A stretch of DNA of 64,000 nt from the NCBI RefSeq assembly GCF_053078305.1, contig NZ_CP166879.1. One strand, 5' to 3'. Positions within the stretch are counted from its first letter, which is position 1. Each line of letters opens with the position of its first letter. Position numbers and translations under genes: made by a program. Positions 2,459 to 41,764 of the stretch are shown here, piece by piece. The notes under the pieces were generated by a model that saw nothing but the letters and a program-made list of their open reading frames with translations, ran no database searches and was not told where the DNA came from.

Positions 2459-2459
2459 A

Positions 2460-2616
2460 TTTGATACCGACAAGGGTTTTAGTGAAAGGAGGTGAAATCA
2501 CCTGTAAGATACTGAAATAAAACAGGTGATCGATGATTCTGGAGGTTGTTTAGTTTTGATACTGATTAAATAAAATCCGGTATAAAATTAAGGTATCGGC
2601 AACAAATTTGATACTG
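2460..2616. repeat. left-end transposase-binding repeats (attL-like), copies of GATAC(C/T)G / CGGTATC
   Basis: Seen at 2460-2470, 2555-2566, 2592-2599 (inverted) and 2607-2616; same motif clustered at the right end. Confidence 0.6.
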
Positions 2617-2747
2617 CACATACTGCTTATGGACGTTTTTAAAAGTACTTAAAATGTCTTTTATGCTAAAAAGTTTATATCAATATCGATCTGGTCACAA
2701 ATCAAGTTGAAAGTGCTCGCTAAGTGCATAGCCTGGGCTTCATGGGG

Positions 2748-3266
2748 TTACGCTTTGGCTTCTTTATGGGTTAAATTGAAATGATGCTCCTTGGTTTCAT
2801 CTCCCTCGAAAATCTCTCTAACCTTTTGATCTGATAAATTATTAAGGCTCAATGCTGCCAGGCGTCGAATACCTGTTAAAGCGATCAACTCTTGATTCTC
2901 TTGATTGCAGAATTCCAGCAATTTTTCTACCCCTTTCCTTCTCAAGGTGTAAATAACTAATTCTTGCTCTTCTTGGCTCAAAGTGTCGATGAGTTCGAGC
3001 AACTCGCTATTGCCACCGTTCTTTTGAGGGGGCTGGTGTTTTATTTCTGCACTACCTGTAATGATGGAAACAACATGTGCAGGTAAGTCGCTTAAACGGT
3101 AGGCAAATGCTCTCCCTCTGATACCAGGTGTAGTTACCGAACGTTTTTCCCATCCTTCATTTTTTGCTCGTTTATGAAGCCCAGCCAGAGATGAAGGAAG
3201 ACCTCCAACCCCCAACAAGTCACTGGCAAGGATCCATTCTTGGTCAAGGATCATATCAAACTCCAT
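2748..3266 (-). CDS. Mu c-like repressor
   Basis: Leftward 172 aa ORF at the left end; its N-terminal motif DLxGxGGLPSSLAGLHKRAKNEGW is shared with the transposase N-terminus (DLPSSLAGLHKKAKREAW), as in Mu c and A. Confidence 0.75.
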   Translation of the reverse strand: MEFDMILDQEWILASDLLGVGGLPSSLAGLHKRAKNEGWEKRSVTTPGIRGRAFAYRLSDLPAHVVSIITGSAEIKHQPPQKNGGNSELLELIDTLSQEEQELVIYTLRRKGVEKLLEFCNQENQELIALTGIRRLAALSLNNLSDQKVREIFEGDETKEHHFNLTHKEAKA

Positions 3267-3483
3267 TTGATATTAACTTTTGTTTATATCTTTTATGCGG
3301 TTTATTTCAAAAATAACTCAATAAAAAACAAATAGATACAGAGCAAATTTAAAAATTTGAAATTAACCAGTTGATATTTACTAAGTTAATATCTAACATA
3401 TCAAACATACACTAGTGAGTAACTCAATAGAGTAGCACACATGAGTAATAAAGTTTGCCATAGAAAGTACACAGGGGGCCATT
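3267..3483. promoter_or_regulatory. divergent early promoter/operator region between repressor and ner
   Basis: AT-rich 217 bp intergenic region with reiterated TTGATAT(T)TAC / TTAATATCTAAC / ATATCAAAC half-sites. Confidence 0.5.
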
Positions 3484-3729
3484 GTGAGTCTTATTGAAGA
3501 TTGGTCTTCCGCCGATATAAAGGCAGCCTTAGAAAAACGCGATACCAATTTGTCACGTTTATCAAGGGAAAATAATTTGCAGCCTAGGACTTTGGGTAAT
3601 GCTTTGCGAGTTCCCTACCCTAAAGGTGAAAAGATAATTGCTAGGGCTATAGGTGTAGAGCCACAGGTTATTTGGCCTACTAGATATGAACGACGTGCGC
3701 GGAGGAAATATGTGGGTTGCAATGACTGA
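3484..3729 (+). CDS. ner: Ner-like DNA-binding regulator
   Basis: 81 aa ORF resembling recalled Mu Ner (…LSRLSR…TLGNAL…PKGEKIIA…EPQVIWPTRY), first rightward gene. Confidence 0.8.
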   Translation: MSLIEDWSSADIKAALEKRDTNLSRLSRENNLQPRTLGNALRVPYPKGEKIIARAIGVEPQVIWPTRYERRARRKYVGCND

Positions 3730-5794
3730 ATTGATTTCATTCAGTGACCTACCTAGTTCTTTGGCAGGTCTGCACAAAAAAGCAAAGAGGGAAGCGTGGA
3801 AAACGCGGCTAAAACCAGGGGTAAAAGGGAAAGTTTTAGAGTGTGAAATAGGAGCTTTGCCTTTAACTGTTCAGCAGGCAGTACGCGAACGCCATGCCCT
3901 GCAACTGATGACGCAAAAAGCCGATGAATCACCGGCTCCGGTGGTGACAAAGGCCAGACGCTCACCTGCCGTGGTTGATGCGGTGGAGGCATATCGCGGA
4001 TCACCCCAACTGATGGTCGAACGCCTCAATGCCCTGACTGAAAATCAGCGCCAGGTGGCTGATGCACGAATCGCGATCGTCAGCGAAGTTCTGAAAGTCG
4101 CGCAACAACCTGGTTTCAGCTGTGCGAAGGCTATCCGGTTTATCGTTGACAACCTGGCACGTTCGCAGTTGGACGAGCGCATTGTGGCAATGGTTGAGAC
4201 GGCGAACGCCAAAAAGGGAAACAGCCGCGCGTTAAGTGAAATCACGCTGAAACGCTGGATTGCGGCCTTTAACAAGGCGCAGAACGCCGCTGAACGCCTG
4301 CTTTTACTGGCACCGGGTAAGCGCCAGGAAATAAAAGCCGAAGATATTAACTGGCTGCCCGAATTTCTGGCGCAGTATCGCCAGTCAAACGGCCGACCAA
4401 TGACCGAGGCTTACGAGGATTTTGTCGCTGAATGGCAGCACCGGCACGCCGATGAGCCTTATATGCTCGATATCATGCCGTCTTATGACACCATTCGCCG
4501 CGCAATGAAGAAACTGCCGGAAGTGGTGAAACAAAAAGGCCGGGTGACCGGCAGTGAATACCGCCAGCTTGAGGGATTCACGCGCCGCGACTGGTCAAAA
4601 ATGCCGGTGAATTATGTCTGGATTGGTGACGGTCACGGCATGAAGCTGAAATGCGCACACCCGGTTCACGGTCGGCCATTTGCACCGGAAGTGACCTTTG
4701 TTATCGACGGTGGCACGCGCTTTGTGGTGGGCTGGAGCCTTGACCTGGCTGAAAATGTTTTCGCCGTAGCCGGTGCCATACAGCACGGCATTCGCCATCA
4801 CGGCAAACCGTTTCTGTATTACTCGGATAACGGCTCCGGGGAAACCGCCGACATCCTGGATAAGGAGGTTGTGGGGATACTGCCGCGACTGGGGATTAAT
4901 CACCCGACCGGGATTGCCGGTAATCCGCAGGGACGAGGCATTATCGAACGGCTTAACCGCACATTACCGATGCGCATAGCCCGTAAATACCGCACCTATT
5001 TCGGGAAAGGTGCAGATCGCGAGACGTTACGCAAAACCAACCGCGATTTACGCTCGGCATTTACTGCCCTGCAACAGGGCAAACGGCTGAACGCCCGGCA
5101 GCAGTCAGCGATGCGTGATTTACCGTCCTGGTCTGAACTGATTGATGCCATTCGTGACGGTGTTGAGTGGTACAACAACCGGCCGCACGATGAATTACCG
5201 GTGAAGCCGAACGGCAAGCATTACAGCCCGGCGGAGTTCAGAAAAAAACGCCTGGCGGAAGAGGACACGGAAATTGAATGGCTGTCCGATGTTGAGCTGC
5301 GGGATATGTTCCGGCCGATGGTGGAACGCCCTGTAAGACGCTGTGAAATACGCTGGCTGAATAATATTTACTACGCGCCCGAGCTGCGTGACGAGCATGG
5401 TCGTAAGGTGCTTATCAGCTATGACATTCATGATGCCGAACGAATTACCGTACGTCGCCTGGATGGCAGCGTGATTTGCGAGGCGGTATGGGACGGTAAT
5501 AAACGCGAAGCCTTCCCGGTTAGCGCGGAATACTACAAACAGCAGCAACGCCTTAAAGGCATGCGTAAACGCGCAGAGGAAAAAATCCGTGATGCCGAGG
5601 ATGAGGTTGTCAACGTGCTGGAGCACAAGCCGCAGGAGCCCTGGCTGGAAAACATATACCGCCCTGTGGGTAATACGGTGACCGTTCAGCAACCGGTCGC
5701 TGACGATGAACCTGATGAAGAATACGAGCGTAATTTCCAGCGGGGATTGCAGTTGCTGGAAGCGAAATTAAAAGAAAATGACCCGCTGGCCTGA
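3710..5794 (+). CDS. Mu-type DDE transposase A
   Basis: ~700 aa ORF with repressor-like N-terminal DNA-binding domain; GGAGG at 3701-3705 favours the ATG at 3710 over the in-frame ATG at 3686. Confidence 0.85.
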   Translation: MWVAMTELISFSDLPSSLAGLHKKAKREAWKTRLKPGVKGKVLECEIGALPLTVQQAVRERHALQLMTQKADESPAPVVTKARRSPAVVDAVEAYRGSPQLMVERLNALTENQRQVADARIAIVSEVLKVAQQPGFSCAKAIRFIVDNLARSQLDERIVAMVETANAKKGNSRALSEITLKRWIAAFNKAQNAAERLLLLAPGKRQEIKAEDINWLPEFLAQYRQSNGRPMTEAYEDFVAEWQHRHADEPYMLDIMPSYDTIRRAMKKLPEVVKQKGRVTGSEYRQLEGFTRRDWSKMPVNYVWIGDGHGMKLKCAHPVHGRPFAPEVTFVIDGGTRFVVGWSLDLAENVFAVAGAIQHGIRHHGKPFLYYSDNGSGETADILDKEVVGILPRLGINHPTGIAGNPQGRGIIERLNRTLPMRIARKYRTYFGKGADRETLRKTNRDLRSAFTALQQGKRLNARQQSAMRDLPSWSELIDAIRDGVEWYNNRPHDELPVKPNGKHYSPAEFRKKRLAEEDTEIEWLSDVELRDMFRPMVERPVRRCEIRWLNNIYYAPELRDEHGRKVLISYDIHDAERITVRRLDGSVICEAVWDGNKREAFPVSAEYYKQQQRLKGMRKRAEEKIRDAEDEVVNVLEHKPQEPWLENIYRPVGNTVTVQQPVADDEPDEEYERNFQRGLQLLEAKLKENDPLA

Positions 5795-5865
5795 AATAAA
5801 AAAATAACCCGAGCGGCGACTCAGGTTATTTGATTAAACAAGGTATCAAATGAAAGGTTAATAAT

Positions 5866-6798
5866 ATGACTGATATTAACGATGTAATCAAGACCATTGA
5901 TGAACTTATTGATGGCGGCGTACTGACGCAGTATGCCATCGCCAGAGAGGCGGGAATTTCCGACGGCACATTATCGGCTTTCCGTAAGGGAAAATATAAA
6001 GGCGATAACGCTGCTGTGGCTGCTTCCCTGCGTTCCTGGTATGAGAACTGGAATAAACAAAGCGCACTGCCGGAACCGCCGCAGTTTGTGGAAACGCAGA
6101 CAGTCCAGGAGCTGCGCACACTGTTTCAGGCGGTTCGTCTGATGGGCTGTATTAACGTTATTGTGGGCGTACCGGGTGTGGGTAAAACGGCCACTGCCCG
6201 TAATTACTGCCAGGAGCAACCAAACACCTGGATGATCACCCTGTCACCCGCGCACTCCAGCGTCACGGAGTGTCTGCTGGAGCTGGCCGATGCGCTGGGG
6301 ATTGATTACACCCGCGCGAACAAAGGGGCATTATCCCGCGCCATCCGCCGTCGCCTGATGGGAACGCGTGGACTGGTGATTGTGGATGAGGCGGATCATC
6401 TTGGTATTGACGGTCTGGAGCAACTCCGGGCAATTCAGGACGCCACGGGGATCGGGATGGTGCTTATTGGTAACCCGCGCGGATTGTTTAAAGGTGGACG
6501 CCGCGCCTTTGATGATTTATCGCGCCTGTTCAGCCGTCTTGCCCGTACAAAACAACTTCGCAAGGCCAAAAAGGCGGATGTGCTGGCCATTGCCAGTGCG
6601 TGGGGGATCAGTGGTGAGGCCGAGCTGGCCGTCATGCAGGCTATCGCTGAAAAGCCGGGAGCGTTACGCGTTCTGACACATACGCTTAACCAGGCGTGGC
6701 TCACCGCCAGCGGTGAAGGCGCGGCGCTGACAGAAAAACATATTAATGCGGCCTTTAAAGAGGTTTATACCAACCCTGAATTACTCTCACAGGTGTGA
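5866..6798 (+). CDS. MuB-like transposition ATPase / target DNA activator
   Basis: 310 aa with Walker A GVPGVGKT and Walker B LVIVDEAD, immediately after the transposase. Confidence 0.85.
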   Translation: MTDINDVIKTIDELIDGGVLTQYAIAREAGISDGTLSAFRKGKYKGDNAAVAASLRSWYENWNKQSALPEPPQFVETQTVQELRTLFQAVRLMGCINVIVGVPGVGKTATARNYCQEQPNTWMITLSPAHSSVTECLLELADALGIDYTRANKGALSRAIRRRLMGTRGLVIVDEADHLGIDGLEQLRAIQDATGIGMVLIGNPRGLFKGGRRAFDDLSRLFSRLARTKQLRKAKKADVLAIASAWGISGEAELAVMQAIAEKPGALRVLTHTLNQAWLTASGEGAALTEKHINAAFKEVYTNPELLSQV

Positions 6799-7022
6799 TT
6801 ATGGCGGTATTTAATATTCCTGATATTTACGGACGCTTTTACCTGGTTAATTTCGATAACGTGAAGGTGATTTCACTGGCCGAAAATAAAGAATGTGGCG
6901 ATTTACTTTTTGAATTTAATGACCGCACACGAATGGTGATATCTGCCGGACTTGATCGCGAAGGTGCGACAGACGTTTACAGCGGAATATGCCGTTCTGT
7001 TGGTGCGAAACAAGTCAGCTAA
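6795..7022 (+). CDS. hypothetical early-region protein
   Basis: 75 aa ORF overlapping the B stop codon. Confidence 0.35.
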   Translation: MIMAVFNIPDIYGRFYLVNFDNVKVISLAENKECGDLLFEFNDRTRMVISAGLDREGATDVYSGICRSVGAKQVS

Positions 7023-7289
7023 ATGAGGTGTTATATGAATATGCAATCCTGCGGTAACAAAATGAATTTATTCGACTCCCTGAACAGCGCGCGCCGTCTG
7101 ACCGAACTTGCCGGTGCGGTACTGGAACGCAGTAAGCGCTATCCGCAACGTTTTGCACTGAAAACCACGCCGCCGGTAGGCAACGTGCAGGGAACCGGTG
7201 AAATTGAAATCACCATACAGACCAACGGCCTGCGCCGCCGTGTGAAGGCCACCCGCATCAGCGGCTGCACGGTTTACTGGGAGGTGTGA
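7023..7289 (+). CDS. hypothetical early-region protein
   Basis: 88 aa ORF; true start may be an internal Met. Confidence 0.35.
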   Translation: MRCYMNMQSCGNKMNLFDSLNSARRLTELAGAVLERSKRYPQRFALKTTPPVGNVQGTGEIEITIQTNGLRRRVKATRISGCTVYWEV

Positions 7290-7366
7290 GGTGAAAAAAA
7301 AATCTCATTGCATGGGCGTGGTCGAGTGGTCTTATTGAGTTTGGTTACGTCCTGCCGGAAGGTGCA

Positions 7367-7573
7367 TTGCCGATAGTTGCCGGAAAGCCTGCCACGGTAC
7401 GGCATGTGATTGAGGTTATGGCGCGTCATGGACGTGATGAACAGGAGCAGTTACTGGTTCCGGGGATACCGGAAGCGGTGACGGAGGAAGAAGCCTTTAA
7501 TGCCATGATTCGGTTCTGCCGTGAGGTCAGACGCCGGGTCAGTTATCCAAACAGAACGAGGACCAGAGGATGA
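7367..7573 (+). CDS. hypothetical early-region protein
   Basis: 68 aa ORF, stop overlaps next start. Confidence 0.35.
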   Translation: MPIVAGKPATVRHVIEVMARHGRDEQEQLLVPGIPEAVTEEEAFNAMIRFCREVRRRVSYPNRTRTRG

Positions 7574-7842
7574 GTAAAGTCGTACGCATTATTTTCGAAT
7601 ACAAGGAGCACGTTATCCATAAAAACGCGGATGGAACAGTGCGCATGGGGATAAGTCTGGACATACGTTCAACCGGGATAAAGCAGAAAGGTGATGGACC
7701 TGCCATGATTTTTGGGGTGGTTATGCTCGCGGAAAGCAGAGACTTTGCTGAACTTGTGGCAATGAAAGCCAGTGCGCTCATGAAAGATATGAGCATGCGT
7801 TCCGGGGTTATTAAAGGTAATGAATTTAATCAGCAGGGGTAA
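7570..7842 (+). CDS. hypothetical small protein, tandem paralog 1
   Basis: 90 aa; N-terminus MSKVVRIIFEYKEHV parallels the next ORF. Confidence 0.45.
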   Translation: MSKVVRIIFEYKEHVIHKNADGTVRMGISLDIRSTGIKQKGDGPAMIFGVVMLAESRDFAELVAMKASALMKDMSMRSGVIKGNEFNQQG

Positions 7843-7846
7843 TTCC

Positions 7847-8140
7847 ATGAGCAAAGTACGCGTTATTTTTGAATTTAAGCATGTTTCGCATGACGAAAAA
7901 CCGGCAGGCAATGACTGTGTTGAAGTGCATGAAAAGATTGGTGTGGATGTAAAAACAGAACGTGATACGAATAACAGGCCGACGTCACTCTGTGACGTTT
8001 ATGTAAGTATTCTCCAGTATCACAGTCCTGAAATTATTCAGTTTCTCTCAGCGGAATTTCAGGCATCTGTACAGGCTTTTGGGGCGGATGCCATCATTAA
8101 ACGCCACCGCGTGCATAAAGCATCAGGCACACTGCAATAA
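7847..8140 (+). CDS. hypothetical small protein, tandem paralog 2
   Basis: Starts MSKVRVIFEFKHV at the ATG at 7847 (ORF track start 7820 is further upstream in frame). Confidence 0.45.
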   Translation: MSKVRVIFEFKHVSHDEKPAGNDCVEVHEKIGVDVKTERDTNNRPTSLCDVYVSILQYHSPEIIQFLSAEFQASVQAFGADAIIKRHRVHKASGTLQ

Positions 8141-8151
8141 GGAAAAACAAA

Positions 8152-8682
8152 ATGGCAAAACGCGTTACAAAATTAAAGGCCGCAGCAGAGGCGGCACCGC
8201 AGACCCGTGAAGAGGTCAGCCGCGATATCCGCACCCTGGGCGATATTCAGCGAGAGGCGCTGCGCCTGGAAACAGCGATGAATGATGAAGTGGCAGAAAT
8301 CACCGCCCGTTATACGCCGCAGATTGAAAACCTTAAAAAAGAAATCAAAGTGCTTTTTAAGGGGATTCAGGACTGGTGCAAAACCAACCGTGATGAGCTG
8401 ACGAACGGCGGCAAAACCAAAACTGCCAATCTGACCACCGGAACAGTGTCATGGCGGCTGGGAAATCCATCATGCAGCGTCAGCCGTGATGTGGAAGGTG
8501 TGATTGAAATGCTGCGCCGTATGGGGCTTGAGCGATTCATCCGCACGAAAGAGGAAGTGAACAAGGAAGCGGTCCTGGCGGAGCCGGATGCAGTGAAAGG
8601 CATTGCCGGTATTAAGGTGAATAAAGGCGCTGAAAGTTTTTATGTCGAGCCTTTTGAACAGGACGCCGGACTGAATAAATAA
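8152..8682 (+). CDS. gam: Gam-like host-nuclease inhibitor (DNA end-binding)
   Basis: 176 aa with strong resemblance to recalled Mu Gam (…IGDIQREALRLETAMNDEVAEITARY…NRDELTNGGKTKTANLTTGTVSWR…ERFIRTKEEVNKEA…). Confidence 0.85.
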   Translation: MAKRVTKLKAAAEAAPQTREEVSRDIRTLGDIQREALRLETAMNDEVAEITARYTPQIENLKKEIKVLFKGIQDWCKTNRDELTNGGKTKTANLTTGTVSWRLGNPSCSVSRDVEGVIEMLRRMGLERFIRTKEEVNKEAVLAEPDAVKGIAGIKVNKGAESFYVEPFEQDAGLNK

Positions 8683-8779
8683 CACCGCATTAAATCTTTA
8701 AATATCACATCGTTTTAAGTATGGCGCTCGCGTCAGGGGACTGTCTGCGCCTGTAAACTGAAAATAAGGAACAGGATAT

Positions 8780-9322
8780 ATGGCATATTTTTATTTCAAA
8801 TTAGACCGTGTGCAGACAAATAAATATTTCACCAAATATCAACAGACTGTTTTACCGCTACGCAACAGTATTCTTCGGGCATTACTGAAAAATACAGGCG
8901 CTGCCGGATTGCGCTTAAAGCCGTTTGCCATGGACGTAATCAGTGAGTTTTATTTTTCTGGTACTCTGCCTGCGGGCTGGCGTAAGCGCGATGATGTGGC
9001 TTTTATCGGGGACGGACCGTGCTTTATTGCCAGACCTGATGAGTCATGCCCTGAAGGACCGGCGATTGCCGCAATGATTGAAGCCGCTGAACGCGAGTTA
9101 AGAAAGCGTCCTGATTTCCTTGTCTGGCTCTGTGAAAAGCTGGGGGTAATGAGAATCCCCTCCATGTTTAACATGGACTCCTGGTGGACCCCGTCGCTCT
9201 CCCGTGATGCCCTGTGCGTGGTGTTTAAAGTAGGCGCTTATGGCAGGGAAATAAAAGGGGGTATTCCTGAAGAATGCCAGGAGATTAAACATTCTGAATA
9301 TGTGGCGCTGACGGAGGAATAA
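8780..9322 (+). CDS. hypothetical protein
   Basis: 180 aa ORF, no recognised motif. Confidence 0.4.
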   Translation: MAYFYFKLDRVQTNKYFTKYQQTVLPLRNSILRALLKNTGAAGLRLKPFAMDVISEFYFSGTLPAGWRKRDDVAFIGDGPCFIARPDESCPEGPAIAAMIEAAERELRKRPDFLVWLCEKLGVMRIPSMFNMDSWWTPSLSRDALCVVFKVGAYGREIKGGIPEECQEIKHSEYVALTEE

Positions 9323-9325
9323 TTC

Positions 9326-9859
9326 ATGATTGATGCAAAAGTGCTTGAAGGGGTTAAAAACTGGCTGAGTATTTACGGGCGTCTGACCTGCGGAGTTCTG
9401 GCTGAAAAAATGAATATGCCGCCATCCTCGATGGTTTATTTTCTGCGTGATGCGGTTGATGCCGGGGTGCTGACGGAATGTAACGGTTTTTATGATATTC
9501 CGCGTCCCCGCCCGGTGCAGCCGGTTCGTCGCAAATGCAGCCAGGAGTCTGCGGCTGATGATGTTCAGTGGTGCAGCTTCAGAAAATCCCTGCCGTGGAT
9601 TGAGGGGCATGATATTCCGTCGATGGCGTGGGAATTTGCTCAGGGCATACTGACCTGTGAAACCGTTTATGTGGTGGCTGAAGTTGATGAGCAGGCCATG
9701 AAAGAAGGCGTGCCCCAGTTTGTGATGGCGTATATCGACATACGCCTGGGTGTCATTATCTGCGGTTTAAGCGGCTGGAATATCACCTCGCGCGTTCTGC
9801 GTTACCTGATTGTTGACCGGACGGCCGCGCCTGCCGGGATATCTGCGGAGGTGGCGTAA
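9326..9859 (+). CDS. hypothetical protein
   Basis: 177 aa ORF, tightly spaced after the previous gene. Confidence 0.4.
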   Translation: MIDAKVLEGVKNWLSIYGRLTCGVLAEKMNMPPSSMVYFLRDAVDAGVLTECNGFYDIPRPRPVQPVRRKCSQESAADDVQWCSFRKSLPWIEGHDIPSMAWEFAQGILTCETVYVVAEVDEQAMKEGVPQFVMAYIDIRLGVIICGLSGWNITSRVLRYLIVDRTAAPAGISAEVA

Positions 9860-10374: not shown

Positions 10375-10377
10375 TGT

Positions 10378-10929: not shown

Positions 10930-11111
10930 TAAAGAGACTTGTATTTTTCGCAATTTTCGTTCCGGTGTTGGGGGTTGGTTTTATATTTGCGATTACAGGA
11001 AACCTGTCCATGATGCCAGATATTTGGTTCTTTATCAGGATGTCGCTCTTCCTGTTTATTATGAATCTTCTTATCGACATATATATCCGTATTACTGGAA
11101 AACATAAATGA
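10926..11111 (+). CDS. small hydrophobic membrane protein
   Basis: 61 aa, two hydrophobic stretches, AT-rich, start overlaps previous stop. Confidence 0.4.
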   Translation: MIKRLVFFAIFVPVLGVGFIFAITGNLSMMPDIWFFIRMSLFLFIMNLLIDIYIRITGKHK

Positions 11112-14196: not shown

Positions 14197-14206
14197 GGAA
14201 AAAGGT

Positions 14207-15010: not shown

Positions 15011-15012
15011 CG

Positions 15013-34084: not shown

Positions 34085-34632
34085 CCCTGACCCCGCATCA
34101 GCGCGCCCTGTTGCAGTTGCTGCCTGACGGGCTGGCATGGGATAAGCGGCCGTCATCCGTTCTTGCAGCTTTGTGCCTGGGCCTCAGTCATTCCACGGAG
34201 CGTGTTTCCTGGACCGGTAACCAGATGCTGGCAGAACGTTTTCCTGATTCATCCCGTCTGCTGCTGGAAGACTGGGAGCGTTATCTGGGGTTGCCGGAAT
34301 GTGATATGACCGGCGCAACCATTCAGGAACGTCAGCGTTATGCCGGGAATAAATACCGGATGAAACCCTCTCTTAACCGTGAATTTTATATCCGGTTTGC
34401 GGCTGAGTTTGGTTATGAAATAGATATCCAGCCATCACCGGAATCACAATGGATCAGTATTGTGACAGTGAAGACGGCGGTGGGATACCGTCACATGAAT
34501 GTACTGGACGATATTCTTACACCACTGCGAATTTATGATGCAAGTGCGCTGGAGTGCATTTTAAACCGTTATAAGCCAGCCTGGCAGACGTTTTTATATC
34601 TGTACGAAAACAGTCATGAGGAGACGGAGTAA
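34075..34632 (+). CDS. tail protein (Mu gp48-like)
   Basis: 185 aa ORF directly upstream of the tail fibre. Confidence 0.6.
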   Translation: MAVTLTPHQRALLQLLPDGLAWDKRPSSVLAALCLGLSHSTERVSWTGNQMLAERFPDSSRLLLEDWERYLGLPECDMTGATIQERQRYAGNKYRMKPSLNREFYIRFAAEFGYEIDIQPSPESQWISIVTVKTAVGYRHMNVLDDILTPLRIYDASALECILNRYKPAWQTFLYLYENSHEETE

Positions 34633-35543
34633 TGTATTTTGTCGACAACAATTCAGGTGTGACCGATATGCCACCACTGGCCCCCTCTCAGGGTACGCAG
34701 GTTAAATGGTTTACTGAAGGTGACGGACGCAAAGGGATCAGCCATATCGGTCAGGACTGGCTGAACATCGTGCAGGCAGAGCTGCTTGCCATTCTGACAG
34801 AAGGAAAGGTTCAGCCGGATAAGGCAAAACTGAACCAGCTGGTGACAGCCATTAAGGCAATCATTGCAGCAAACGCATACAGCCGGAAAAACAACCTTAA
34901 GGAGATTGCGGATGCAGGTGCAGAAGCACAGGCTGCTGCCCGCCGTCATCTGGGGCTGGGAGGATTATCAGGAAAAGACAGTCTGGCTGCTGCTGATGTG
35001 GGAGCACTGGAGAAATCCCGGAATTTTGACGATGTACCGGATAAACCGACGGCCCGCCTGAATCTTGATGTTTACAGTAAGGGAGAAGGCGATGAGCGTT
35101 ATCTGCGCAGGGACCAGAATGGCGCGGATATCCCGGACAAAGGAACCTTTATCGATAACCTCGGTTTACGGGAAACGGTAAATAAGGCTGCTGATGCCCT
35201 GCCATCGGGTGGAACCGCCGTGGCAGCGAATAAACTCGCCACCCCAGTAAATATTAATGGCGTTCCTTTCGACGGAACGCAGGATATCAACATCACGTCA
35301 GGAATGACGCAGTCAACCGCAGATGGCCGGTATGTACAGAATGTTCAGCTTGGAGCACAGAGCTATCATTCACCCGGAGGCAATGAAATGTCATGGAATT
35401 ACAGCGCACCTTCCGGTTGTATGCTTTCCGGTATTAACGTGCAGGAAACCGGCTCCCGGTCTGCGGACAATATCGGTGGGGTCTATTATCGCCCGGTTCA
35501 GATTTATATTAATAATGCCTGGAGAACGGTAAGTTCAGTGTAA
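34632..35543 (+). CDS. tail fibre protein (constant part plus current variable C-terminus)
   Basis: 303 aa; its 3' third overlaps the left inverted repeat of the invertible segment, and its C-terminal ~75 aa are homologous to the inverted fragment at 36179-36400. Confidence 0.75.
   Translation: MYFVDNNSGVTDMPPLAPSQGTQVKWFTEGDGRKGISHIGQDWLNIVQAELLAILTEGKVQPDKAKLNQLVTAIKAIIAANAYSRKNNLKEIADAGAEAQAAARRHLGLGGLSGKDSLAAADVGALEKSRNFDDVPDKPTARLNLDVYSKGEGDERYLRRDQNGADIPDKGTFIDNLGLRETVNKAADALPSGGTAVAANKLATPVNINGVPFDGTQDINITSGMTQSTADGRYVQNVQLGAQSYHSPGGNEMSWNYSAPSGCMLSGINVQETGSRSADNIGGVYYRPVQIYINNAWRTVSSV
35157..35300. repeat. left inverted repeat of tail-fibre invertible segment
   Basis: Perfect 144 bp inverted copy of 36399-36542, checked base by base. 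Confidence 0.85.
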
Positions 35544-35577
35544 ACCACAGAAAAGGGTGCTGAATGCACCCTCTGAA

Positions 35578-36099
35578 TTATTCCGGTTTTTCCGGCCAGG
35601 GAATCGCCTGGTAATGCCCCTCACTGGCAATATCATTAAAGTGCATTTCTTTAAGCTGTCGGATATACGCCATCCAGCGCGTCAGCTGTAATTTATTTTC
35701 ATCGCTAATCATGTCCAGTTTTAATTCCGTTTTCCAGTCATCCACAGTTTCGTTGGCTTCCTGGAGCAGCGATGAGCGGCGCTTTTCAGCAACCGTCTTC
35801 CAGTTTACCGGCACCTTTGATATCAGGCCATCAGAAAACTGCCAGTTACCGTCAATATCCACACCTTCCGGCAGTTCGTCCACTTCAACAACAGTAAAAC
35901 CTGCCGGATATAAAGCAGAGACATCTTCAGCAACAGAGCAGATAATACCCGTTACAGGCGAAATACAGAGTTTGTATTTCTTTGTGAAAAGCGGGAGAGA
36001 TTCATAAAAATCCCTTCCGTCCTCACTCTGGAAATACTGAACATCCTCACCATAGGGTTTGTGTTCCGGGTAATATCGTTTTACGTTAATAAGCTCCAT
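35578..36099 (-). CDS. tail fibre assembly chaperone (U'-like)
   Basis: 173 aa from the ATG at 36099 with AGGTG SD; C-terminal …ISDENKLQLTRWMAYIRQL…PWPEKPE matches the Tfa/U family. Confidence 0.75.
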   Translation of the reverse strand: MELINVKRYYPEHKPYGEDVQYFQSEDGRDFYESLPLFTKKYKLCISPVTGIICSVAEDVSALYPAGFTVVEVDELPEGVDIDGNWQFSDGLISKVPVNWKTVAEKRRSSLLQEANETVDDWKTELKLDMISDENKLQLTRWMAYIRQLKEMHFNDIASEGHYQAIPWPEKPE

Positions 36100-36178
36100 T
36101 ATTTCACCTTGTTTTTGTTGAAAAGACAAAATCATCATATATTTATTCAGATAATCTGTTTTTTGAACTACTGCACTT

Positions 36179-36542
36179 TTATGCGCTGGAAGCTGTTTTC
36201 CACGAACCATTTATCAGAAACTGAACAGGGCGATAATATGCGGTTACCGTTGCATTACCATCACCAGCGACATCAAGCCCTGTAAGTACGCATCCGTCAG
36301 GAACTTCAAAAATATTATATTGCATTCCAATCGTTGACCTTGAACCTCTTCGAATGCTTTGAACATAACGTGAGTCAGCCACAGACTGCGTCATCCCCGA
36401 TGTAATATTGATATCCTGCGTTCCGTCGAAAGGAACGCCATTAATATTTACTGGGGTGGCGAGTTTATTCGCTGCCACGGCGGTTCCACCCGATGGCAGG
36501 GCATCAGCAGCCTTATTTACCGTTTCCCGTAAACCGAGGTTT
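36179..36542 (-). other. alternative tail-fibre variable C-terminal segment (promoterless, usable after inversion)
   Basis: Reverse-strand coding segment homologous to the C-terminus of 34632-35543 (AANKLATPVNINGVPFDGTQDINITSGMTQS…YYRPVQ…), ending at the stop at 36179. Confidence 0.65.
36399..36542. repeat. right inverted repeat of tail-fibre invertible segment
   Basis: Perfect reverse complement of 35157-35300. Confidence 0.85.
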
Positions 36543-36603
36543 CAGGGATGTCGTATATCTGCTTTAAAAGGCATTTTCACCTCTTTTTAAGGAAGGTAAA
36601 TAC

Positions 36604-37164
36604 ATGCTGATTGGCTATATACGCGTATCAACAAATGACCAGAACACAGGTTTACAAAGAAATGCGCTGGAATGTGCAGGATGTAAGCTGATTTTTGAAG
36701 ATAAAATGAGCGGAAAAACAACGCAGCGGCCGGGACTGAAGCGGGCACTGAAGAAACTAAAACCCGGTGACACGCTGATGGTCTGGAAACTGGACAGGCT
36801 GGGGCGCAGTATGCGCCACCTTGTTGCGCTGACAGATGAATTACAGCAACAGGGGATAAATTTTCGTAGTCTTACTGACAACATTGATACGTCAACCCCC
36901 ATGGGGCGCTTCTTTTTTCACATAATGGGTGCGCTGGCAGAAATGGAGCGTGAATTGATTGTCGAACGGACACGGGCTGGTCTTGCAGCTGCCCGTGAAA
37001 GGGGACGAACCGGTGGCAGACCCCGTCGTCTCACGCAGGAACAATACGAGCAGGTCGGGCGTTTACTGGCCGGGGGTGTCAGCCGAAGACAGGTGGCACT
37101 TATTTTTGATATCGGCCTTTCAACCCTTTATCGTTATTATCCTGCAAGCATTTCGGAAAAATAA
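36604..37164 (+). CDS. gin: Gin/Hin/Pin-family serine DNA invertase
   Basis: 186 aa starting MLIGYIRVSTNDQ… with resolvase catalytic domain and C-terminal HTH, adjacent to the inverted repeats. Confidence 0.9.
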   Translation: MLIGYIRVSTNDQNTGLQRNALECAGCKLIFEDKMSGKTTQRPGLKRALKKLKPGDTLMVWKLDRLGRSMRHLVALTDELQQQGINFRSLTDNIDTSTPMGRFFFHIMGALAEMERELIVERTRAGLAAARERGRTGGRPRRLTQEQYEQVGRLLAGGVSRRQVALIFDIGLSTLYRYYPASISEK

Positions 37165-37254
37165 GACGCTCCCTTTGTTGGGCCTTTACTGAATTAACGC
37201 AAAATGGCGTTTATCGGTCTGTGGATATGATAATTCTGTTTATTCAGGAACAGG

Positions 37255-39312
37255 ATGAATATTATGACGTCCAAATGGGTTCAACTATCATCAATGCCCG
37301 GAAACTTTACCGTTAAAGTTTCCGGTGGTACAGCGGCATTTCTTGAGGCTCCTTTTCCTCCGGCTGAAACGAAAGGAGGAATGACATTTGCTGACTGTCT
37401 CATCAGTTTTAATACACAGGATTGCCTGTGGGTAAGGCCAGTATCCGGTGATCCGAACGTGGAAATTACCGGAGCGGGTATTGGTGCTGTCATTCCGTTA
37501 AGTGCTGATGTTGCCGGTACTACTGAACCGTCAGACTGGGATAATGCTGAAACACATACCCGTCCGGCAGGAAATGAAACGGCTTCCAGCTCCCCTTCCT
37601 GGTATTACGTGATTGTTATAGCCGGTCAGTCCAATGCTTCATCTTATGGTGAAGGGTTGCCCCTGCCGGATTCTTATGATCGTCCTGATCCACGTATTAT
37701 GCAGCTGGCACGCAGGAATACACAAACCCCCGGAGGTATTCCCTGCAAATACAATGAAATCATTCCAGCAGATCACTGCCTTCATGATGTTCAGAATATG
37801 AGTCTGCTGAACCATCCAAAAGCAGACCTGAAAAAAGGGCAGTATGGTTGTGTGGGTCAGGGACTTCATATTGCGAAAAAAGTATTACCGGTGATTCCTG
37901 CTGATGCCGGGATTTTACTGGTTCCCTGTGCCCGTGGCGGCTCTGCTTTTACAACCGGCGCAGTTGGCTCATTCGATCCGGCAAGTGGTGCAGCCGAGGC
38001 GTCACTACGCTGGGGAGTGGATACCCCACTGTATCAGGATCTTGTCAGTCGAACGAAAGCGGCACTTGAGGCGAATCCAAAGAATGTGCTGTTATCTGTC
38101 GTATGGATTCAGGGGGAAGGAGACCTTAAAGCGACCCCGGCCCAGCATGGTGCCCAGTTTACTGCGATGGTGAAAAAATTCCGTGCGGATCTTGGTGCTT
38201 TCTCCGGTCAGTGTATTGGTGGTTCATCAGACAGTGTGCCGTGGTTATGTGGTGACACAACCTATGACTGGAAAGAGAAGAACCCGGCGGCATATGAAAC
38301 CATTTATAGCGGATATAAAAACCGGGCTTCCGAGAACATTCACTTTGTTCCACTGATGCACGATGAGTTCGGTAATAAAACCGCGACCAACCTGCCGGAG
38401 CACGACCCGGATATCGCTTCTGCCGGGTATTATGGTGCGGAATCACGGGGAGATGGCAACTGGACAACAGCATCCAGGGCAACCCATTTTAGCTCCTGGG
38501 CGCGCCGTTTTCTGGTCTCAGATCGTTTTGCATCAGCAATTCTTAAATATGCAGGTCTGACCTCTGCATTTATTGCCGGTGTGGCCCCTGATGGTGAAGC
38601 CCTGCCTCAGCCCGCGCCGGGTGGAAAACCGGAAGCTCCGACAGGTAGTCAGCCAGGAAGCAGTGAGTCCCCCCAGCCGACATCCCCGTCACTCCGTACG
38701 CTGCTTTCACTTAAAGCATCAGCAGGGGAAGCCCCGGCTCAGGGATGGAAAATTACAGATGGTACAATCCAGCTGACGGACGAAGGTAAAGCGCTGACCG
38801 TATCCAAACAAAGCGGAAAAACCTGGTCACTTACCCATGCGACCAGTGCTGCCGGAGAGCTGTTGCAGCATGGTGGTCAGTTGACCTGTAAATTCCGTCT
38901 GTCAGGTGAAGTAAAAGAAGGCCAGTTTGCTCTGGGTATTTACCTCCACACCGATACGGTCCCGGAAGGTGTAACCATGAGTGGTACAGGCACACCGTTC
39001 CTGATGGCGTATTATCTCCAGACAACAGGCGGCCAGTTAAATCTGATGCACCATAAAACAGGGGGGAATACGAAACTGGGATCATTTGGAGCCTACAATA
39101 ACCAGTGGCATACACTTGTCCTGAAGTTTACGGCGGGAAGTGCCCAGGTAACGCCTGTGCTGGATGGCACTCCGGGCCAGGCATTCCAGATGGTGAAAGA
39201 TGCACTTTCCCCTGCCAAAGATACGCTGACACTGACAGATGTCACCAAAGGGGCAACTTATGGCGTGTCTTTTGAGAGCGTTGTCCTTGAGGTTAATACC
39301 CCTGCGGCATAA
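37255..39312 (+). CDS. NanS-like SGNH esterase (putative 9-O-acetyl sialic acid esterase) with C-terminal extension
   Basis: 685 aa; residues ~115-430 closely resemble recalled E. coli NanS/YjhS (YYVIVIAGQSNASSYGEGLPLPDS…DTPLYQDLVSRTKAAL…CGDTT…DRF); ~250 aa extra C-terminal domain. Confidence 0.7.
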   Translation: MNIMTSKWVQLSSMPGNFTVKVSGGTAAFLEAPFPPAETKGGMTFADCLISFNTQDCLWVRPVSGDPNVEITGAGIGAVIPLSADVAGTTEPSDWDNAETHTRPAGNETASSSPSWYYVIVIAGQSNASSYGEGLPLPDSYDRPDPRIMQLARRNTQTPGGIPCKYNEIIPADHCLHDVQNMSLLNHPKADLKKGQYGCVGQGLHIAKKVLPVIPADAGILLVPCARGGSAFTTGAVGSFDPASGAAEASLRWGVDTPLYQDLVSRTKAALEANPKNVLLSVVWIQGEGDLKATPAQHGAQFTAMVKKFRADLGAFSGQCIGGSSDSVPWLCGDTTYDWKEKNPAAYETIYSGYKNRASENIHFVPLMHDEFGNKTATNLPEHDPDIASAGYYGAESRGDGNWTTASRATHFSSWARRFLVSDRFASAILKYAGLTSAFIAGVAPDGEALPQPAPGGKPEAPTGSQPGSSESPQPTSPSLRTLLSLKASAGEAPAQGWKITDGTIQLTDEGKALTVSKQSGKTWSLTHATSAAGELLQHGGQLTCKFRLSGEVKEGQFALGIYLHTDTVPEGVTMSGTGTPFLMAYYLQTTGGQLNLMHHKTGGNTKLGSFGAYNNQWHTLVLKFTAGSAQVTPVLDGTPGQAFQMVKDALSPAKDTLTLTDVTKGATYGVSFESVVLEVNTPAA

Positions 39313-39584
39313 TCGTGACGGCCGGGAATTTATCCGGCTGTAACATCAGTTAATAAGAGTGAGGCTTATATGACATATATAAACGTCTGCCTGCTGTATT
39401 TCTGCACGGTGGTTTGTTGTCTGTTGCTTGTCAGCGGTGGTTATAAAATTATTCGCAATTATTTTCGAAATAAAATTGATGCAGCTGCCGAGGAAAAGAT
39501 AAAAAGCGGTGCTGTAATGCCGCAGCCGAAAGACTCCGGTCAGATTTAATTTTTTGTGAACCAGAAAAGGAAAGGAGAATATTC

Positions 39585-39830
39585 ATGCCAGAGATTAAAG
39601 GCACGGTTACTGAAGAGCTTGTCAAACAGGCACTTTATTCTGAAGAAGTGAACCGCGTGCTGAAGGCGCAGGTTCGCAAGGATTTTGAGGCACAAATCGA
39701 CGCATATGTTGATGAAGTGCTGGCCCGAATGGTTGGCCATTCTCCGGCTGAAAACAGCACGGAGAATGAGCCTCAGCCCGTAGAGCAACCAGAGCCGGTT
39801 CAGCCCGGAACTGACAGTGCCATGATGTAA
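39585..39830 (+). CDS. hypothetical small acidic protein
   Basis: 81 aa ORF with strong SD AAAGGAAAGGAG upstream. Confidence 0.4.
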   Translation: MPEIKGTVTEELVKQALYSEEVNRVLKAQVRKDFEAQIDAYVDEVLARMVGHSPAENSTENEPQPVEQPEPVQPGTDSAMM

Positions 39831-39904
39831 CAATACAAACCGACAGCTTCTCCTGTCGGTTTGATTTTCATGGGCGATGTATATACCAGTCAGAGGAAAT
39901 AATC

Positions 39905-40105
39905 ATGGACAAGAACAAAAAGCAGCCCGATACCAAAGGTCTGGAAATATTAAGCGCAGAAATTATCAATGCGCTACGTTCAGGACTTGATGAAAATACA
40001 TTACAGGATCGAAACTTCACCACTGCAATGTGGATAGCGATGCAGATCCTGTGTACCCCAAGATGCGCTATTTTTGCGGTTCGTGAGGGTCAGTTGACTC
40101 GCTGA
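39905..40105 (+). CDS. hypothetical small protein
   Basis: 66 aa ORF, weak support. Confidence 0.3.
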   Translation: MDKNKKQPDTKGLEILSAEIINALRSGLDENTLQDRNFTTAMWIAMQILCTPRCAIFAVREGQLTR

Positions 40106-40298
40106 TTGCCCGAATTACATCAGAAAAGCACGCGTTCCATAATTGCATAGCTGATGAATCACCAGCTGTATGAAAAGAGGTAAAGACACAACTGGTGGAT
40201 GTCATTGCTGCAATTGTGATATCAGCTGCAATTCGCGCAGCCTGTAACTTTTGGTCGGTGGTCAGTTTATCCATTTTCTCCTGCCTGAACAGATGCAT
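40068..40298 (-). CDS. hypothetical small protein
   Basis: 76 aa ORF on the opposite strand overlapping the previous ORF; only one of the two is likely real. Confidence 0.25.
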   Translation of the reverse strand: MHLFRQEKMDKLTTDQKLQAARIAADITIAAMTSTSCVFTSFHTAGDSSAMQLWNACFSDVIRAISESTDPHEPQK

Positions 40299-40529
40299 CT
40301 CTGCTTTACAGGAGGCCGGGGAATATCATAGGATACACCACGAGCTCAGAGTGAAGCATTGATGCAGTTTTTTACAGATTGACCCAGAATAGTTCGCGCT
40401 ATCTGAGTCGCCATTTATGTAGTCCCGAAGTAAAGCATTGATGCAAACTTGTCTAAATCGGCCCAGCATAGTTCCAGCTATGCTGGGTTTCCCTTTTATG
40501 TAGTATCCTGTTGATTTGAAACATACTAC

Positions 40530-40760
40530 ATATACGCGCGATCCTACCTTCACTGGATAAAAAGTCAATAAAATGATCATTTTATGATCGTTTTCACCAC
40601 CTAACTCTTCGTTTTCTTTAAGTAAATAATCACCGCCCTGAATCATTGTTGATGACTTTTCAATCTATTTGTTGTATCAATTAAACAAATCGAATCGATC
40701 GTTTTTGTCGATCGATTGCATGAGAAAGGCATCAACAACAAAGCAGGAGGTTATGCGGCC
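40530..40760. promoter_or_regulatory. putative mom operon control region with clustered Dam (GATC) sites
   Basis: GATC at 40540, 40575, 40586, 40697 and 40710 within ~180 bp upstream of com; Dam-regulated mom promoter in Mu is established knowledge. Confidence 0.45.
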
Positions 40761-40961
40761 ATGTATCGAAACATACGGTGCCGACACTGCAATAAGCTAC
40801 TGGCACGGGCCAGTTTCAGTTATCTGGAAGTAAAATGTCCGCGCTGTAAAACCCTCAATCAAATCACATCTCCGAGCGCCACAGAGCACCCCACATACAC
40901 AAGGAAATCCTGTCGTGGGGAACAGAAAGCAAGTCACATCCCGTATCATCAGCACGCCTGA
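40761..40961 (+). CDS. com: Com-like zinc-finger translational activator
   Basis: 66 aa from the ATG at 40761: [14 protein letters not shown]…[10 protein letters not shown], two CxxC pairs as in Mu Com; 3' end overlaps the mom start. Confidence 0.7.
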
Positions 40962-41652
40962 ACTTATTCGCTATAACGACAATATCGTTGGTTATGGTTC
41001 CCGTGAGTTGCGGGTTGAGACAATAAGTTGCTGGCTGGCCAGACTGGTTATCGTCAATAAACATTACAGCCACCGTTTCGTAAATAACTCCTACCTTCAT
41101 CTGGGCATATTTTCAGAACGGGAACTTGTTGGCGTAATGCAATGGGGTTACGCCCTTAACCCAAACAGTGGTGCACGCGTCGTAACGGGTACGCAGAACC
41201 GAGAATATATGGAGCTGAACCGGCTATGGATGCATGACTGTATGCCGAGAAACTCCGAATCAAGGGCAATCAGTTACGCGCTCAAGCTAATCAGGCAGCT
41301 TTATCCGCAGGTACAGTGGGTTCAGTCGTTTGCAGATGAGCGTTGTGGCTGTCTTGGTGTCGTGTATCAGGCAAGCAATTTTGATTATGTAGGCAGCCAT
41401 GAAACAATATTCTATGAACTTGATGGCGAGTGGTATCACGAGATTTGCAGGAATGCCATTAAACGAGGCGGACAACGAGGTGAACATCTGAGGGCTAATA
41501 TCGACAGAGCCAGTGTGCATAAGTTCCGACAGTTTCGTTACATCCGGTTTCTGAACAAGAGGGCCAGAAAACGCCTCAACACAAAGCTATTCAAAGTCCA
41601 GCCTTACCCAAAACCACAAACAGTTAAAACTGGTTTGAAAGAGAGTGAATGA
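40915..41652 (+). CDS. mom: Mom-like DNA modification protein
   Basis: 245 aa ORF (GTG start) overlapping com and located at the right phage end, the Mu com/mom arrangement; function by position and architecture. Confidence 0.6.
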
Positions 41653-41710
41653 GCGCTTAAAAACTCATTCTAAAACTCAAAAGAAAAGCGCCGATTTAGT
41701 ATCAAATAAG

Positions 41711-41764
41711 TTGCGTATCGGCGTTTTTCAGCGGTATCAAATGAAATGCAAATCGGTATCAAAA
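41711..41764. repeat. right-end transposase-binding repeats (attR-like)
   Basis: CGTATCGG (41714-41721), GCGGTATCAAA (41731-41741), TCGGTATCAAA (41753-41763), inverted relative to the left-end copies. Confidence 0.6.

Follow-up and report, generated by a model that had tools for sequence, protein, structure and literature searches.

A Mu-like prophage within yciQ

The window analysed here, the whole stretch of 64,000 nucleotides (nt) from contig NZ_CP166879.1 (assembly GCF_053078305.1), contains a Mu-like transposable prophage inserted in the host gene yciQ, and this prophage carries, antisense between its F and G homologues, a gene for a tRNA-shaped RNA. The map of open reading frames (ORFs) shows a run of plus-strand genes between two minus-strand ORFs (1823-2473 and 41759-43030). 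An earlier note on this DNA had claimed that a block in Mu gene order interrupts yciQ, and both the gene order and the two yciQ halves on the same strand bear this out. The prophage was placed correctly in yciQ, but both of the ends proposed, 2459 and 41764, fall 16 bp short of the true ones, because the reader had mistaken the first GATACC motif for the terminus. Likewise, the yciQ parts given as 41759-43030 and 1823-2458 are indeed the two halves of the gene, with limits at 41781-43030 and 1823-2442.

We set the junctions by aligning the flanks to the uninterrupted yciQ of NZ_CP096837. The left host flank corresponds to the rluB-yciQ region of thousands of Escherichia coli genomes, with up to 99.8% identity, and ends ...ATCGCCCA at 2442, where the homology stops. 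The phage begins TGTAACCAGG... at 2443 and finishes ...GCGCTATA at 41780, and the host sequence restarts CCCACCAG... at 41781. The minus-strand gene is thus split by a contiguous block of 39,338 bp, which lies between 4-bp direct repeats, CCCA. The empty site in NZ_CP096837 reads ATCGCCCACCAG, in the wider context ...ATATCGCCCACCAGACTC..., and in-silico removal of 2443-41784 (the prophage and one copy of the repeat) restores an open yciQ frame of 621 amino acids, identical to the reference at 612 of 622 positions. The flanks are therefore two halves of one gene, by alignment as well as by the restored frame. None of 5,426 complete E. coli genomes spans the yciQ-prophage junction. Compared with NZ_CP096837, the 5' part of yciQ also has a 30-bp in-frame deletion around position 42941 (10 amino acids, YEEGISLFDV, in the N-terminal part), which is unrelated to the prophage.

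By sequence relatedness, we assign the prophage to the Sp18 lineage, the Mu-like prophages of Shiga toxin-producing E. coli (STEC) known since the O157 Sakai genome, and not to Mu or D108. At least 80% of the left half is present in 226, and at least 80% of the right half in 207, of the complete E. coli genomes, mostly with 95-98% identity, and many of the carriers are O157:H7 or other STEC. The best-matching records have 95-98% identity over 91-99% of the left half and 96-97% of the right half, and the Mu-like inserts of the Shiga toxin (Stx) phages LC727881 and LC727895 match 81-89% of the left half at ~96% and 83% of the right half at ~84% identity. NZ_CP075665 covers 99% of the left half, and one copy from O157 (locus L004) is 97-99% identical to the window outside four stretches (2531-3886, 11771-11947, 15590-15758 and 39860-40425); therefore nothing in the gene content is new to E. 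coli. Gene order, termini, 4-bp duplication, the RNA between F and G, the gin segment, the esterase cassette and com/mom are all shared with the Sp18-type prophages of STEC, those of LC727881 and LC727895 included. The prophage in the window differs from these relatives in its site, yciQ, which is occupied in none of the 5,426 genomes, and its immunity module and the stretches 15590-15758 and 39860-40425 differ from L004. As a prophage call it is ordinary: one more member of a common, already known lineage, at a new site where it inactivates yciQ.

The relation to Mu itself is one of gene order. Comparison of 60 candidate ORFs with Mu by tblastn gave Mu-ordered homologues for 40 of them, the late genes being collinear and full-length. 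At the DNA level Mu aligns to 6% of the left half with 72% identity, and the right half gave no megablast match. Of the synteny with Mu and D108, which the earlier note had proposed to compare, the Mu-type order holds, but a close kinship does not. Shared with Mu (NC_000929) and D108 are c, ner, A and B, kil, gam, gemA, lys, the Mu-ordered head and tail genes, a Gin-invertible tail-fibre segment, Com/Mom, and scattered insertion sites with short duplications. Mu differs in having a 5-bp duplication, a CA right end and two Mor/C-type genes, where the window has a 4-bp duplication, a TA right end and one such gene. The invertible segment in the window is shorter, with one S-tip/U cassette, and the window has an esterase cassette and, between F and G, which overlap in Mu, an RNA gene.

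Both ends of the prophage are well defined. The distance from the terminus to the nearest TTTGATACCGA site is 17 nt at each end. GATACYG motifs occur 35 times in the window, compared with 10.2 ± 3.2 by chance, and are arranged in inverted orientation at the ends: 2463-2616 has four on the plus strand, and 41732-41760 has two on the minus strand. Counted as TTGATACYG-type putative sites, there are three to four on the plus strand at 2461-2616 and three on the minus strand at 41697-41762. The inverted GATAC(C/T)G clusters noticed earlier are thus real, and they are putative binding sites of the transposase A. Identical termini were found in IMG/VR at 14 further left ends and 16 further right ends, with a different flank in every case. 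The left terminus is TG, and the right one is TA in all 17 right ends, that of the window and the 16 others.

Six insertions could be paired at both flanks, and each has a direct repeat of precisely 4 bp: CCCA in the window, CATC in LC727881 (the record of which itself annotates a 4-bp repeat), CACC in the O157 copy in siiEA, and AACA, AGAA and TGCC in three IMG genomes (L049/L059, L051/L061 and L054/L065 among the loci). The fifth base is mismatched in every paired insertion, and on the right side it would be the constant A of the phage. The end flanks of IMG genome 2617270962 mismatched each other and were left out of the count. The insertion sites are unrelated to one another (yciQ in the window, siiEA in L004, the inside of two Stx phages, one place on a plasmid), and the other flanks all differ. 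Neither the TG...CA termini nor the 5-bp target duplication of the Mu type is present in the prophage, and we regard the 4-bp duplication and the TA right terminus as a modest variant of Mu behaviour, consistent in the Sp18 lineage. The variant is visible in database annotation, and we found no discussion of it in the literature; it matters for automated boundary calling and for the reach of the Mu transpososome model.

The transposition genes are of the expected type. Profile searches with the A protein gave matches to Mu-transpos_C (3.5e-17), HTH_Tnp_Mu_1 (5.6e-08), rve (0.02) and the PHROG transposase family 310 (1.9e-206). Residues 335-437 match IS481/IS3 and retroviral-integrase-core profiles, which identifies a DDE-type core by profile, and the N-terminal domain matches the solved I-alpha domain of MuA and the domain of the Mu c repressor. 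A resembles MuA in the N-terminal and C-terminal domains only; the core matches integrase cores and not the MuA core. The gene for a MuB-type AAA+ ATPase adjoins A, as expected of Mu-like phages. The transposase and MuB-type signatures that the earlier note had looked for in A and B are thus both present.

We conclude, with a probability of roughly 0.9, that 2443-41780 holds a temperate, transposable phage of the Sp18 lineage that appears to be intact and that entered yciQ by DDE transposition. With the help of the MuB-type ATPase, A would bind the inverted TTGATAC(C/T)G clusters at both ends and join the TG...TA termini to a target cut with a 4-bp stagger, the repair of which would duplicate CCCA; transposition would be of the Mu type, either replicative or conservative. 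In the lysogen, the c-type repressor would keep the early operon off within a c/ner switch, and after derepression the single Mor/C-family activator would switch on the Mu-ordered late region, in the order lysis, terminase, portal, F, G, protease/scaffold, capsid, contractile tail and baseplate. Gin is predicted to flip a 1.4-kb segment and so exchange the tips of the tail fibres, Com/Mom to modify the phage DNA, and packaging to proceed as in Mu. Three points weigh against this conclusion. The catalytic core of A is too distant to match MuA structures by sequence. The TA right end, compared with the CA used by Mu, might reflect another chemistry or a weaker terminus; it is nonetheless constant in all 17 right ends seen. 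Finally, the activity of the prophage is inferred from its intactness, the many insertion sites and the published behaviour of Sp18.

Could the prophage instead be a grounded, defective remnant, unable to transpose or to form particles? The TA right end would fit such a state, as would the presence of one Mor/C-type activator only, the lack of a chaperone gene downstream of S in the current orientation of the tail-fibre segment, and the small frameshifted ORFs near gin and com in relatives. However, the two ends are undamaged, with a perfect target duplication around them, and all Mu core genes are represented by collinear homologues of full length. All copies, at many sites, share these termini and the single activator, and ongoing transposition is therefore implied. 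In addition, Sp18 DNA is packaged (PMC2669165). We consider a defective remnant quite improbable. Sp18 of O157 Sakai was predicted to be intact and was reported to be packaged, not circularised and not inducible by mitomycin C (PMC2669165), and Sp18 resides at strain-specific sites (PMC7430833). Mitomycin C, which the earlier note had suggested for induction, is unsuitable as a test because of this reported behaviour (PMC2669165).

An antisense tRNA-shaped RNA between F and G

The F and G genes are 118 bp apart in the prophage (20416-20533), whereas they overlap by 4 nt in Mu, and the spacer has no match in Mu. In relatives, PGAP labels an element on the opposite strand between F and G as 'tRNA-OTHER'. 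ARAGORN reports no tRNA at this element, either in the window or at 18 loci, and a whole-window Rfam scan at gathering thresholds missed it. A local Rfam scan matched the tRNA family (RF00005) on the minus strand at 20415-20495, with 31.4 bits against a gathering score of 29, and no other Rfam family matched the element. In the Rfam alignment, 15 nt occupy the place where the 7-nt anticodon loop belongs.

We tested the structure on an alignment of 19 distinct variants (A4), using 500 shuffles, and controls in which the pairing partners were slid by 1-3 columns. Four helices are present: a 9-bp terminal helix, a D arm, the base of a central arm, and a T arm. In these helices 94% of the cells are paired, compared with 39-53% in the slid controls, 12 of the 21 pairs show compensatory double changes (60 cells), and the observed score was reached by none of the shuffles. 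The U8/A9 junction, the GG of the D loop and the UUCGAC of the T loop are invariant in the 19 variants. Both the sequence and the length of the central arm are hypervariable, and it always forms a closed hairpin, with loops of 3, 4, 6 or 10 nt among the variants folded and caps that are often UUCG, UCCG, UCAG or GUAA.

The element might be a decayed tRNA gene, or a scar of recombination, without a function of its own. Its rejection by ARAGORN would be understandable in that case, and so would the lack of a 7-nt anticodon loop and of CCA, and a central arm that is very different between copies. Decay does not account for the compensatory changes and the excess of pairing over the slid controls, for the invariance of the elbow nucleotides in the D loop, the T loop and at positions 8 and 9, or for a variable arm that invariably folds to a stable hairpin, in many cases capped by a UUCG or GNRA tetraloop. 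Moreover, the position of the element and its -10 signal are kept while the identity of the F protein falls from 99% to 34%. A relic of this kind is therefore an unlikely explanation.

Searched with a covariance model derived from A4, the window yields a single hit of 91 bits, and Mu yields no hit. With this model, genuine tRNAs stay at or below 45 bits and family members reach at least 66 bits, except for a second match of 49 bits in contig L082. That contig, a distant Mu-like one, has two matches to the model (119-198 and 753-834, 49 and 74 bits), which flank an F-like ORF (34% identical to F).

The RNA is predicted to have its own promoter, of a sigma-70-like type, which would place the start of transcription at about the first base of the terminal helix. 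In nearly all of the phage variants examined, the -10 element keeps a fixed distance to the start of the helix, whereas the spacer sequence changes; it reads TATACT in the most divergent ones. These features bear on the possibility that the structure forms on the plus strand, in the late F-G mRNA, as a signal for processing or translational uncoupling. The complement is also stable (-31.1 kcal/mol), and F and G overlap in Mu, where they are presumably coupled, so that a structure in the spacer could alter the coupling. On the plus strand, however, 42 G.U cells become A.C mismatches and pairing drops from 94% to 84%, the nucleotides of the tRNA elbow are correct on the minus strand only, the conserved -35/-10 signal is at the right distance on the minus strand, and tandem arrays of the element exist in an island without F or G genes (see below). 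We regard a signal in the mRNA as improbable. That the element is a DNA site acting in cis, such as pac or att, was rejected as well, given the 42 G.U cells and the presence of the element in the mdtP island, at an unrelated att site.

With canonical tRNA (RF00005) the RNA shares the cloverleaf topology, a terminal helix, the D arm with GG, the UUCGAC loop of the T arm and a junction of the U8/A9 type. It differs in having a closed hypervariable hairpin where tRNA has the anticodon arm, a terminal helix of 9 bp, and no encoded NCCA. Thus the tRNA elbow is present, and neither a 7-nt anticodon loop on a 5-bp stem nor a 7-bp acceptor stem with discriminator base and CCA is found. CCA is not encoded in 18 of the 19 variants; the exception is a distant one, L083, which ends in ACCA. 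The two outermost pairs of the terminal helix covary (AU:7, CG:5, UG:3, GC:1 and GC:10, UA:4, GU:2, AU:1).

This helix bears on a further alternative, in which the RNA is a real acceptor with a 7-bp stem, tailed with CCA and aminoacylated, and might, for instance, supply the glycyl group to Mom. In favour of it, Gly-tRNAGly is the substrate of Mom, which may read chiefly the acceptor end (PMC13219725), the RNA keeps the full top half of a tRNA, and L083 ends in ACCA. But Mu has mom without the RNA, the covariation of the two outermost pairs indicates that the ends of the helix remain paired, CCA is absent from nearly all variants, and there is no anticodon for recognition by glycyl-tRNA synthetase. 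An aminoacylated RNA is very unlikely, and a link between the RNA and Mom as the leading explanation was ruled out by the presence of mom in Mu without the RNA, the blunt covarying helix and the lack of CCA.

Non-decoding tRNA mimics such as YrlA (bacterial Y-RNA-like), eukaryotic mascRNA and the tRNA-like domain of transfer-messenger RNA (tmRNA) keep the elbow and the top half of tRNA. The RNA between F and G resembles them in this but lacks a tmRNA-type ORF, and no gene for Ro/Rsr lies close to it. In YrlA the ends emerge from the anticodon side, whereas in the RNA described here they form an acceptor-like helix.

Distribution and possible role of the RNA

We determined the distribution of the RNA by pattern scans of IMG/VR, GTDB genomes and metagenomes. 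The element is present in every Sp18-type locus examined, always antisense between the F and G homologues, at F-protein identities of 63-99% to that of the window, and in one contig at 34%. The F-G spacer is found in 228 of the 5,426 complete E. coli genomes, often labelled tRNA-OTHER. In the phage collection only the LC727881 and LC727895 records contain it, and a scan of genome contigs added only Citrobacter braakii. There are three allelic types of the RNA in Sp18-type phages, and the RNA in the window is of the rarer type, with 59 records at 99% identity or more, compared with 158 in the 60-80% band.

In NZ_CP075652 only the RNA part of the spacer is matched, and there it forms a tandem array of three units (L071 3540-4370). 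The array ends an island of ~8.4 kb integrated in mdtP (NZ_CP075652 2238440-2246870; L072 33441-41871) and flanked by repeated motifs resembling integrase arm sites. The genes of the island encode an integrase, a helix-turn-helix regulator, Ash-like, Icd-like and DUF4222 proteins, a RepA-family helicase, SSB, PerC and a Mor-family activator that is 47% identical to the Mor/C protein of the window. The Mor-family protein and the RNA are all that the island and the prophage have in common. The three units are nearest to three different allelic types of the phages (83%, 75-77% and 79%); PGAP annotates one as tRNA-Tyr and one as tRNA-OTHER, and misses the third. Arrays of two to three units, some of them recombinant, also occur in metagenome contigs (L075, L076 and L088). 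The mdtP island looks like a phage satellite, perhaps of Mu-type phages. A GTGAAA-rich motif common to the left end of the phage and the island is too short for significance in blastn, and we mention it as speculation only.

A different tRNA-like gene was seen in unrelated metagenomic phages, in a primase/exonuclease context (L027 1099-1190, L028 8174-8262, L031 3841-3932 and L036 8050-8141). Its D loop is the same, a closed hairpin takes the place of the normal anticodon arm, and the anticodons that ARAGORN assigns to it are inconsistent.

We tentatively propose, at slightly less than even odds, that the product of the F-G spacer belongs to a previously undescribed class of small, tRNA-shaped RNAs that do not decode. 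These RNAs would have a 9-bp helix, a tRNA elbow and a closed hypervariable arm, an antisense promoter of their own, three alleles, and arrays of two or three units in a satellite-like island, with each unit of a three-unit array nearest to a different allele. They would act in trans as decoy or adaptor in conflicts between phage and host or helper and satellite, in a lineage that transposes with a 4-bp stagger and a TA end. In the best-supported reading, the RNA is made from its own promoter and folds as the top half and elbow of a tRNA with a blunt paired end; it cannot decode, and may serve as a mimic for a tRNA-binding protein of the host, the phage or a defence system. A role in conflict or specificity rather than in housekeeping is suggested by the hypervariable arm, the three allelic types and the island arrays. 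Two points weigh against the proposal. Expression and role of the RNA are deduced from sequence features, and in the literature on Mu-like phages, Sp18, O157 prophages and satellites we found no description of a tRNA-like RNA.

As far as literature searches reach, the RNA is known to annotation pipelines yet uncharacterised, and it is the feature of the prophage that most deserves attention. It is a structurally constrained RNA gene with a promoter-like signal in ~230 complete E. coli genomes, mostly STEC, which pipelines label 'tRNA-OTHER' or miss. If expressed, the RNA would be a tractable entry to tRNA mimicry in temperate phages, and possibly to a helper-satellite relationship of the Mu type.

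Gene content of the prophage

The features of the prophage and its junctions are summarized in Table 1. The earlier note had remarked that the early region, the space between the head genes and the right end hold content that does not look like the Mu core, and in all three places ORFs or spacer sequence proved to be without a Mu match in tblastn.

Table 1. Features of the prophage and the adjoining host sequence (window coordinates)
Feature	Position	Strand	Evidence
yciQ 3' part (host)	1823..2442	-	99.8% identity to yciQ/rluB regions of E. coli
Target-site duplication CCCA, left copy	2439..2442	.	CCCA on both flanks compared with empty site
Sp18-type Mu-like prophage	2443..41780	+	Mu synteny (tblastn); 95-98% identity to prophages in ~226 E. 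coli genomes, LC727881/LC727895 inserts
Left end (attL), terminus TGTAACCAGG and cluster of TTGATAC(C/T)G-type putative A sites	2443..2620	+	terminus identical in 14 other copies
c-type repressor, 172 amino acids	2748..3266	-	phrog_7148 transcriptional repressor, 9e-47; weak match to Mu c
ner homologue	3484..3729	+	53% identity to Mu Ner; SfsB/Ner-family match under curated cut-off
Transposase A, 702 amino acids	3686..5794	+	Pfam Mu-transpos_C, HTH_Tnp_Mu_1, weak rve; phrog_310
Transposition ATPase B, 310 amino acids	5866..6798	+	49% identity to MuB; Phage-MuB_C 7.2e-25 and AAA_22
Early (semi-essential) region	6795..12464	+	Mu matches for gam, gp11, gp12, gemA; PHROG families for the rest
kil-type gene	7023-7289	+	PHROG family
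gam	8152-8682	+	57% identity to Mu gam
gp11/gp12 homologues	9326-10374	+	Mu match
D5-like regulator	10378-10929	+	PHROG family
gemA	11955-12464	+	Mu match
Mor/C-family late activator, 141 amino acids	12534..12959	+	39% identity to Mu C
Lysis genes (endolysin 13031-13531, spanin-type ORFs); DksA/TraR-type zinc-finger ORF	13031..14434	+	homology
gp27, gp28, portal gp29 and head-morphogenesis F (gp30) homologues	15013..20415	+	57-72% identity to Mu gp27-gp30
Extra 82-amino-acid ORF between gp27 and gp28 homologues	15605-15853	+	end resembles gp27 C terminus
tRNA-shaped RNA gene without anticodon loop	20412..20499	-	Rfam tRNA 31.4 bits; own covariance model 91 bits
Predicted sigma-70-like promoter (-35 TTGCCT, 17-bp spacer, -10 TAAAAT)	20504..20532	-	-10 at fixed distance from helix start in nearly all phage variants examined
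G (gp31), G-I spacer, I protease/scaffold, T major head protein	20534..23255	+	Mu homology; gp25-gp31 up to 72%, I and T 66%
Connector, sheath, tube, tape-measure, baseplate (gp35-gp48 homologues)	23299..34632	+	35-66% identity to Mu, collinear, full-length
Tail fibre S, present orientation	34632..35543	+	44% identity to constant part of Mu S
Invertible (G-type) segment	35157..36541	.	bounded by 182-nt inverted repeats
Tail-fibre (U-type) assembly gene	35578-36210	-	inside invertible segment
Alternative S C-terminus	36179-36478	-	inside invertible segment
gin-type serine invertase	36604..37164	+	74% identity to Mu Gin
NanS-p-type sialate O-acetylesterase, 685 amino acids	37255..39312	+	Pfam SASA and DUF6645; phrog_143
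Small cargo ORFs: DUF826-like 39585-39830 (+), 39905-40105 (+), 40326-40646 (-)	39585..40646	.	PHROG/annotation of relatives
com	40716-40961	+	47% identity to Mu Com
mom	40915-41652	+	79% identity to Mu Mom
Right end (attR), terminus ...GCGCTATA and inverted TTGATACCG-type sites	41690..41780	-	terminus identical in 16 other copies
Target-site duplication CCCA, right copy	41781..41784	.	flank alignment
yciQ 5' part (host)	41781..43030	-	flank alignment, restored ORF

The immunity module (2531-3886; c repressor, operators and ner) is not shared at the DNA level with L004, and the two phages are probably heteroimmune, judging from these sequences. The early ORFs at 6795-8140, 8780-9322 and 10378-11958 have no match in Mu by tblastn. 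All of the unmatched early ORFs fall into PHROG families (Kil-type, small nuclease-inhibitor-like, D5-like regulator, and several of no assigned function), and PADLOC gave no defence match among the early ORFs except a marginal match (0.008) of the D5-like regulator to a homing endonuclease. They are ordinary variable content of the early region. A single Mor/C-family gene lies between gemA and lys, and it is also the sole Mor-family gene annotated in L004; compared with Mu, where Mor and C are separated by a middle operon, the single activator implies a simpler transcription cascade.

Among the late genes, the gp27 homologue corresponds to the small terminase subunit of Mu. The gp28 homologue is a 'putative portal protein' in the Mu record, and AF083977 lists a 'terminase large subunit' in that stretch. 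The extra ORF between the two overlaps a stretch (15590-15758) that is missing from L004 and L002, and is likely to be a scar left by recombination. In Mu, the spacer with the gyrase site corresponds to the G-I spacer (21008-21183) of the prophage; it is clearly conserved only in a block of ~30 nt, and as the alignment is limited to this block we make no claim of a strong gyrase site.

The segment adjoining gin, of 1.4 kb, is bounded by inverted repeats of 182 nt (35157-35338 and 36360-36541) that are 91% complementary. The invertible region of Sp18 has been reported to differ from that of Mu (PMC2669165).

The esterase and the small ORFs between gin and com (37255-40646, without a Mu match in tblastn) are a lambdoid-type accessory cassette. 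The esterase is 50-56% identical, over ~90% of its length, to NanS-p/SASA esterases of more than 300 Stx and related phages, and 59.5% identical to its counterpart in the otherwise close Mu-like phage of LC727881, so the cargo gene has been exchanged between lineages. With NanS-p of the Stx-converting lambdoid phages it shares the SASA and DUF6645 domains, followed by small DUF826-like ORFs (plus DUF1378 in L004). The NanS-p proteins differ in their lambdoid setting, and the protein in the window has an N-terminal extension of ~70 residues that cannot be aligned with them. Domains and identity to NanS-p led us to reject this 685-residue ORF as a defence or DNA-modification gene. For the cargo ORFs at the right end, PADLOC gave no family at E <= 0.01 and NCBIfam nothing useful.

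Further into the host sequence, a trp operon leader is found at 44715-44808 (Rfam RF00513, 93 bits), and downstream of it an ORF of 520 amino acids (44830-46392) occupies the position expected for trpE. The leader and this ORF confirm the ordinary yciO-rnm-trp neighbourhood of the host.

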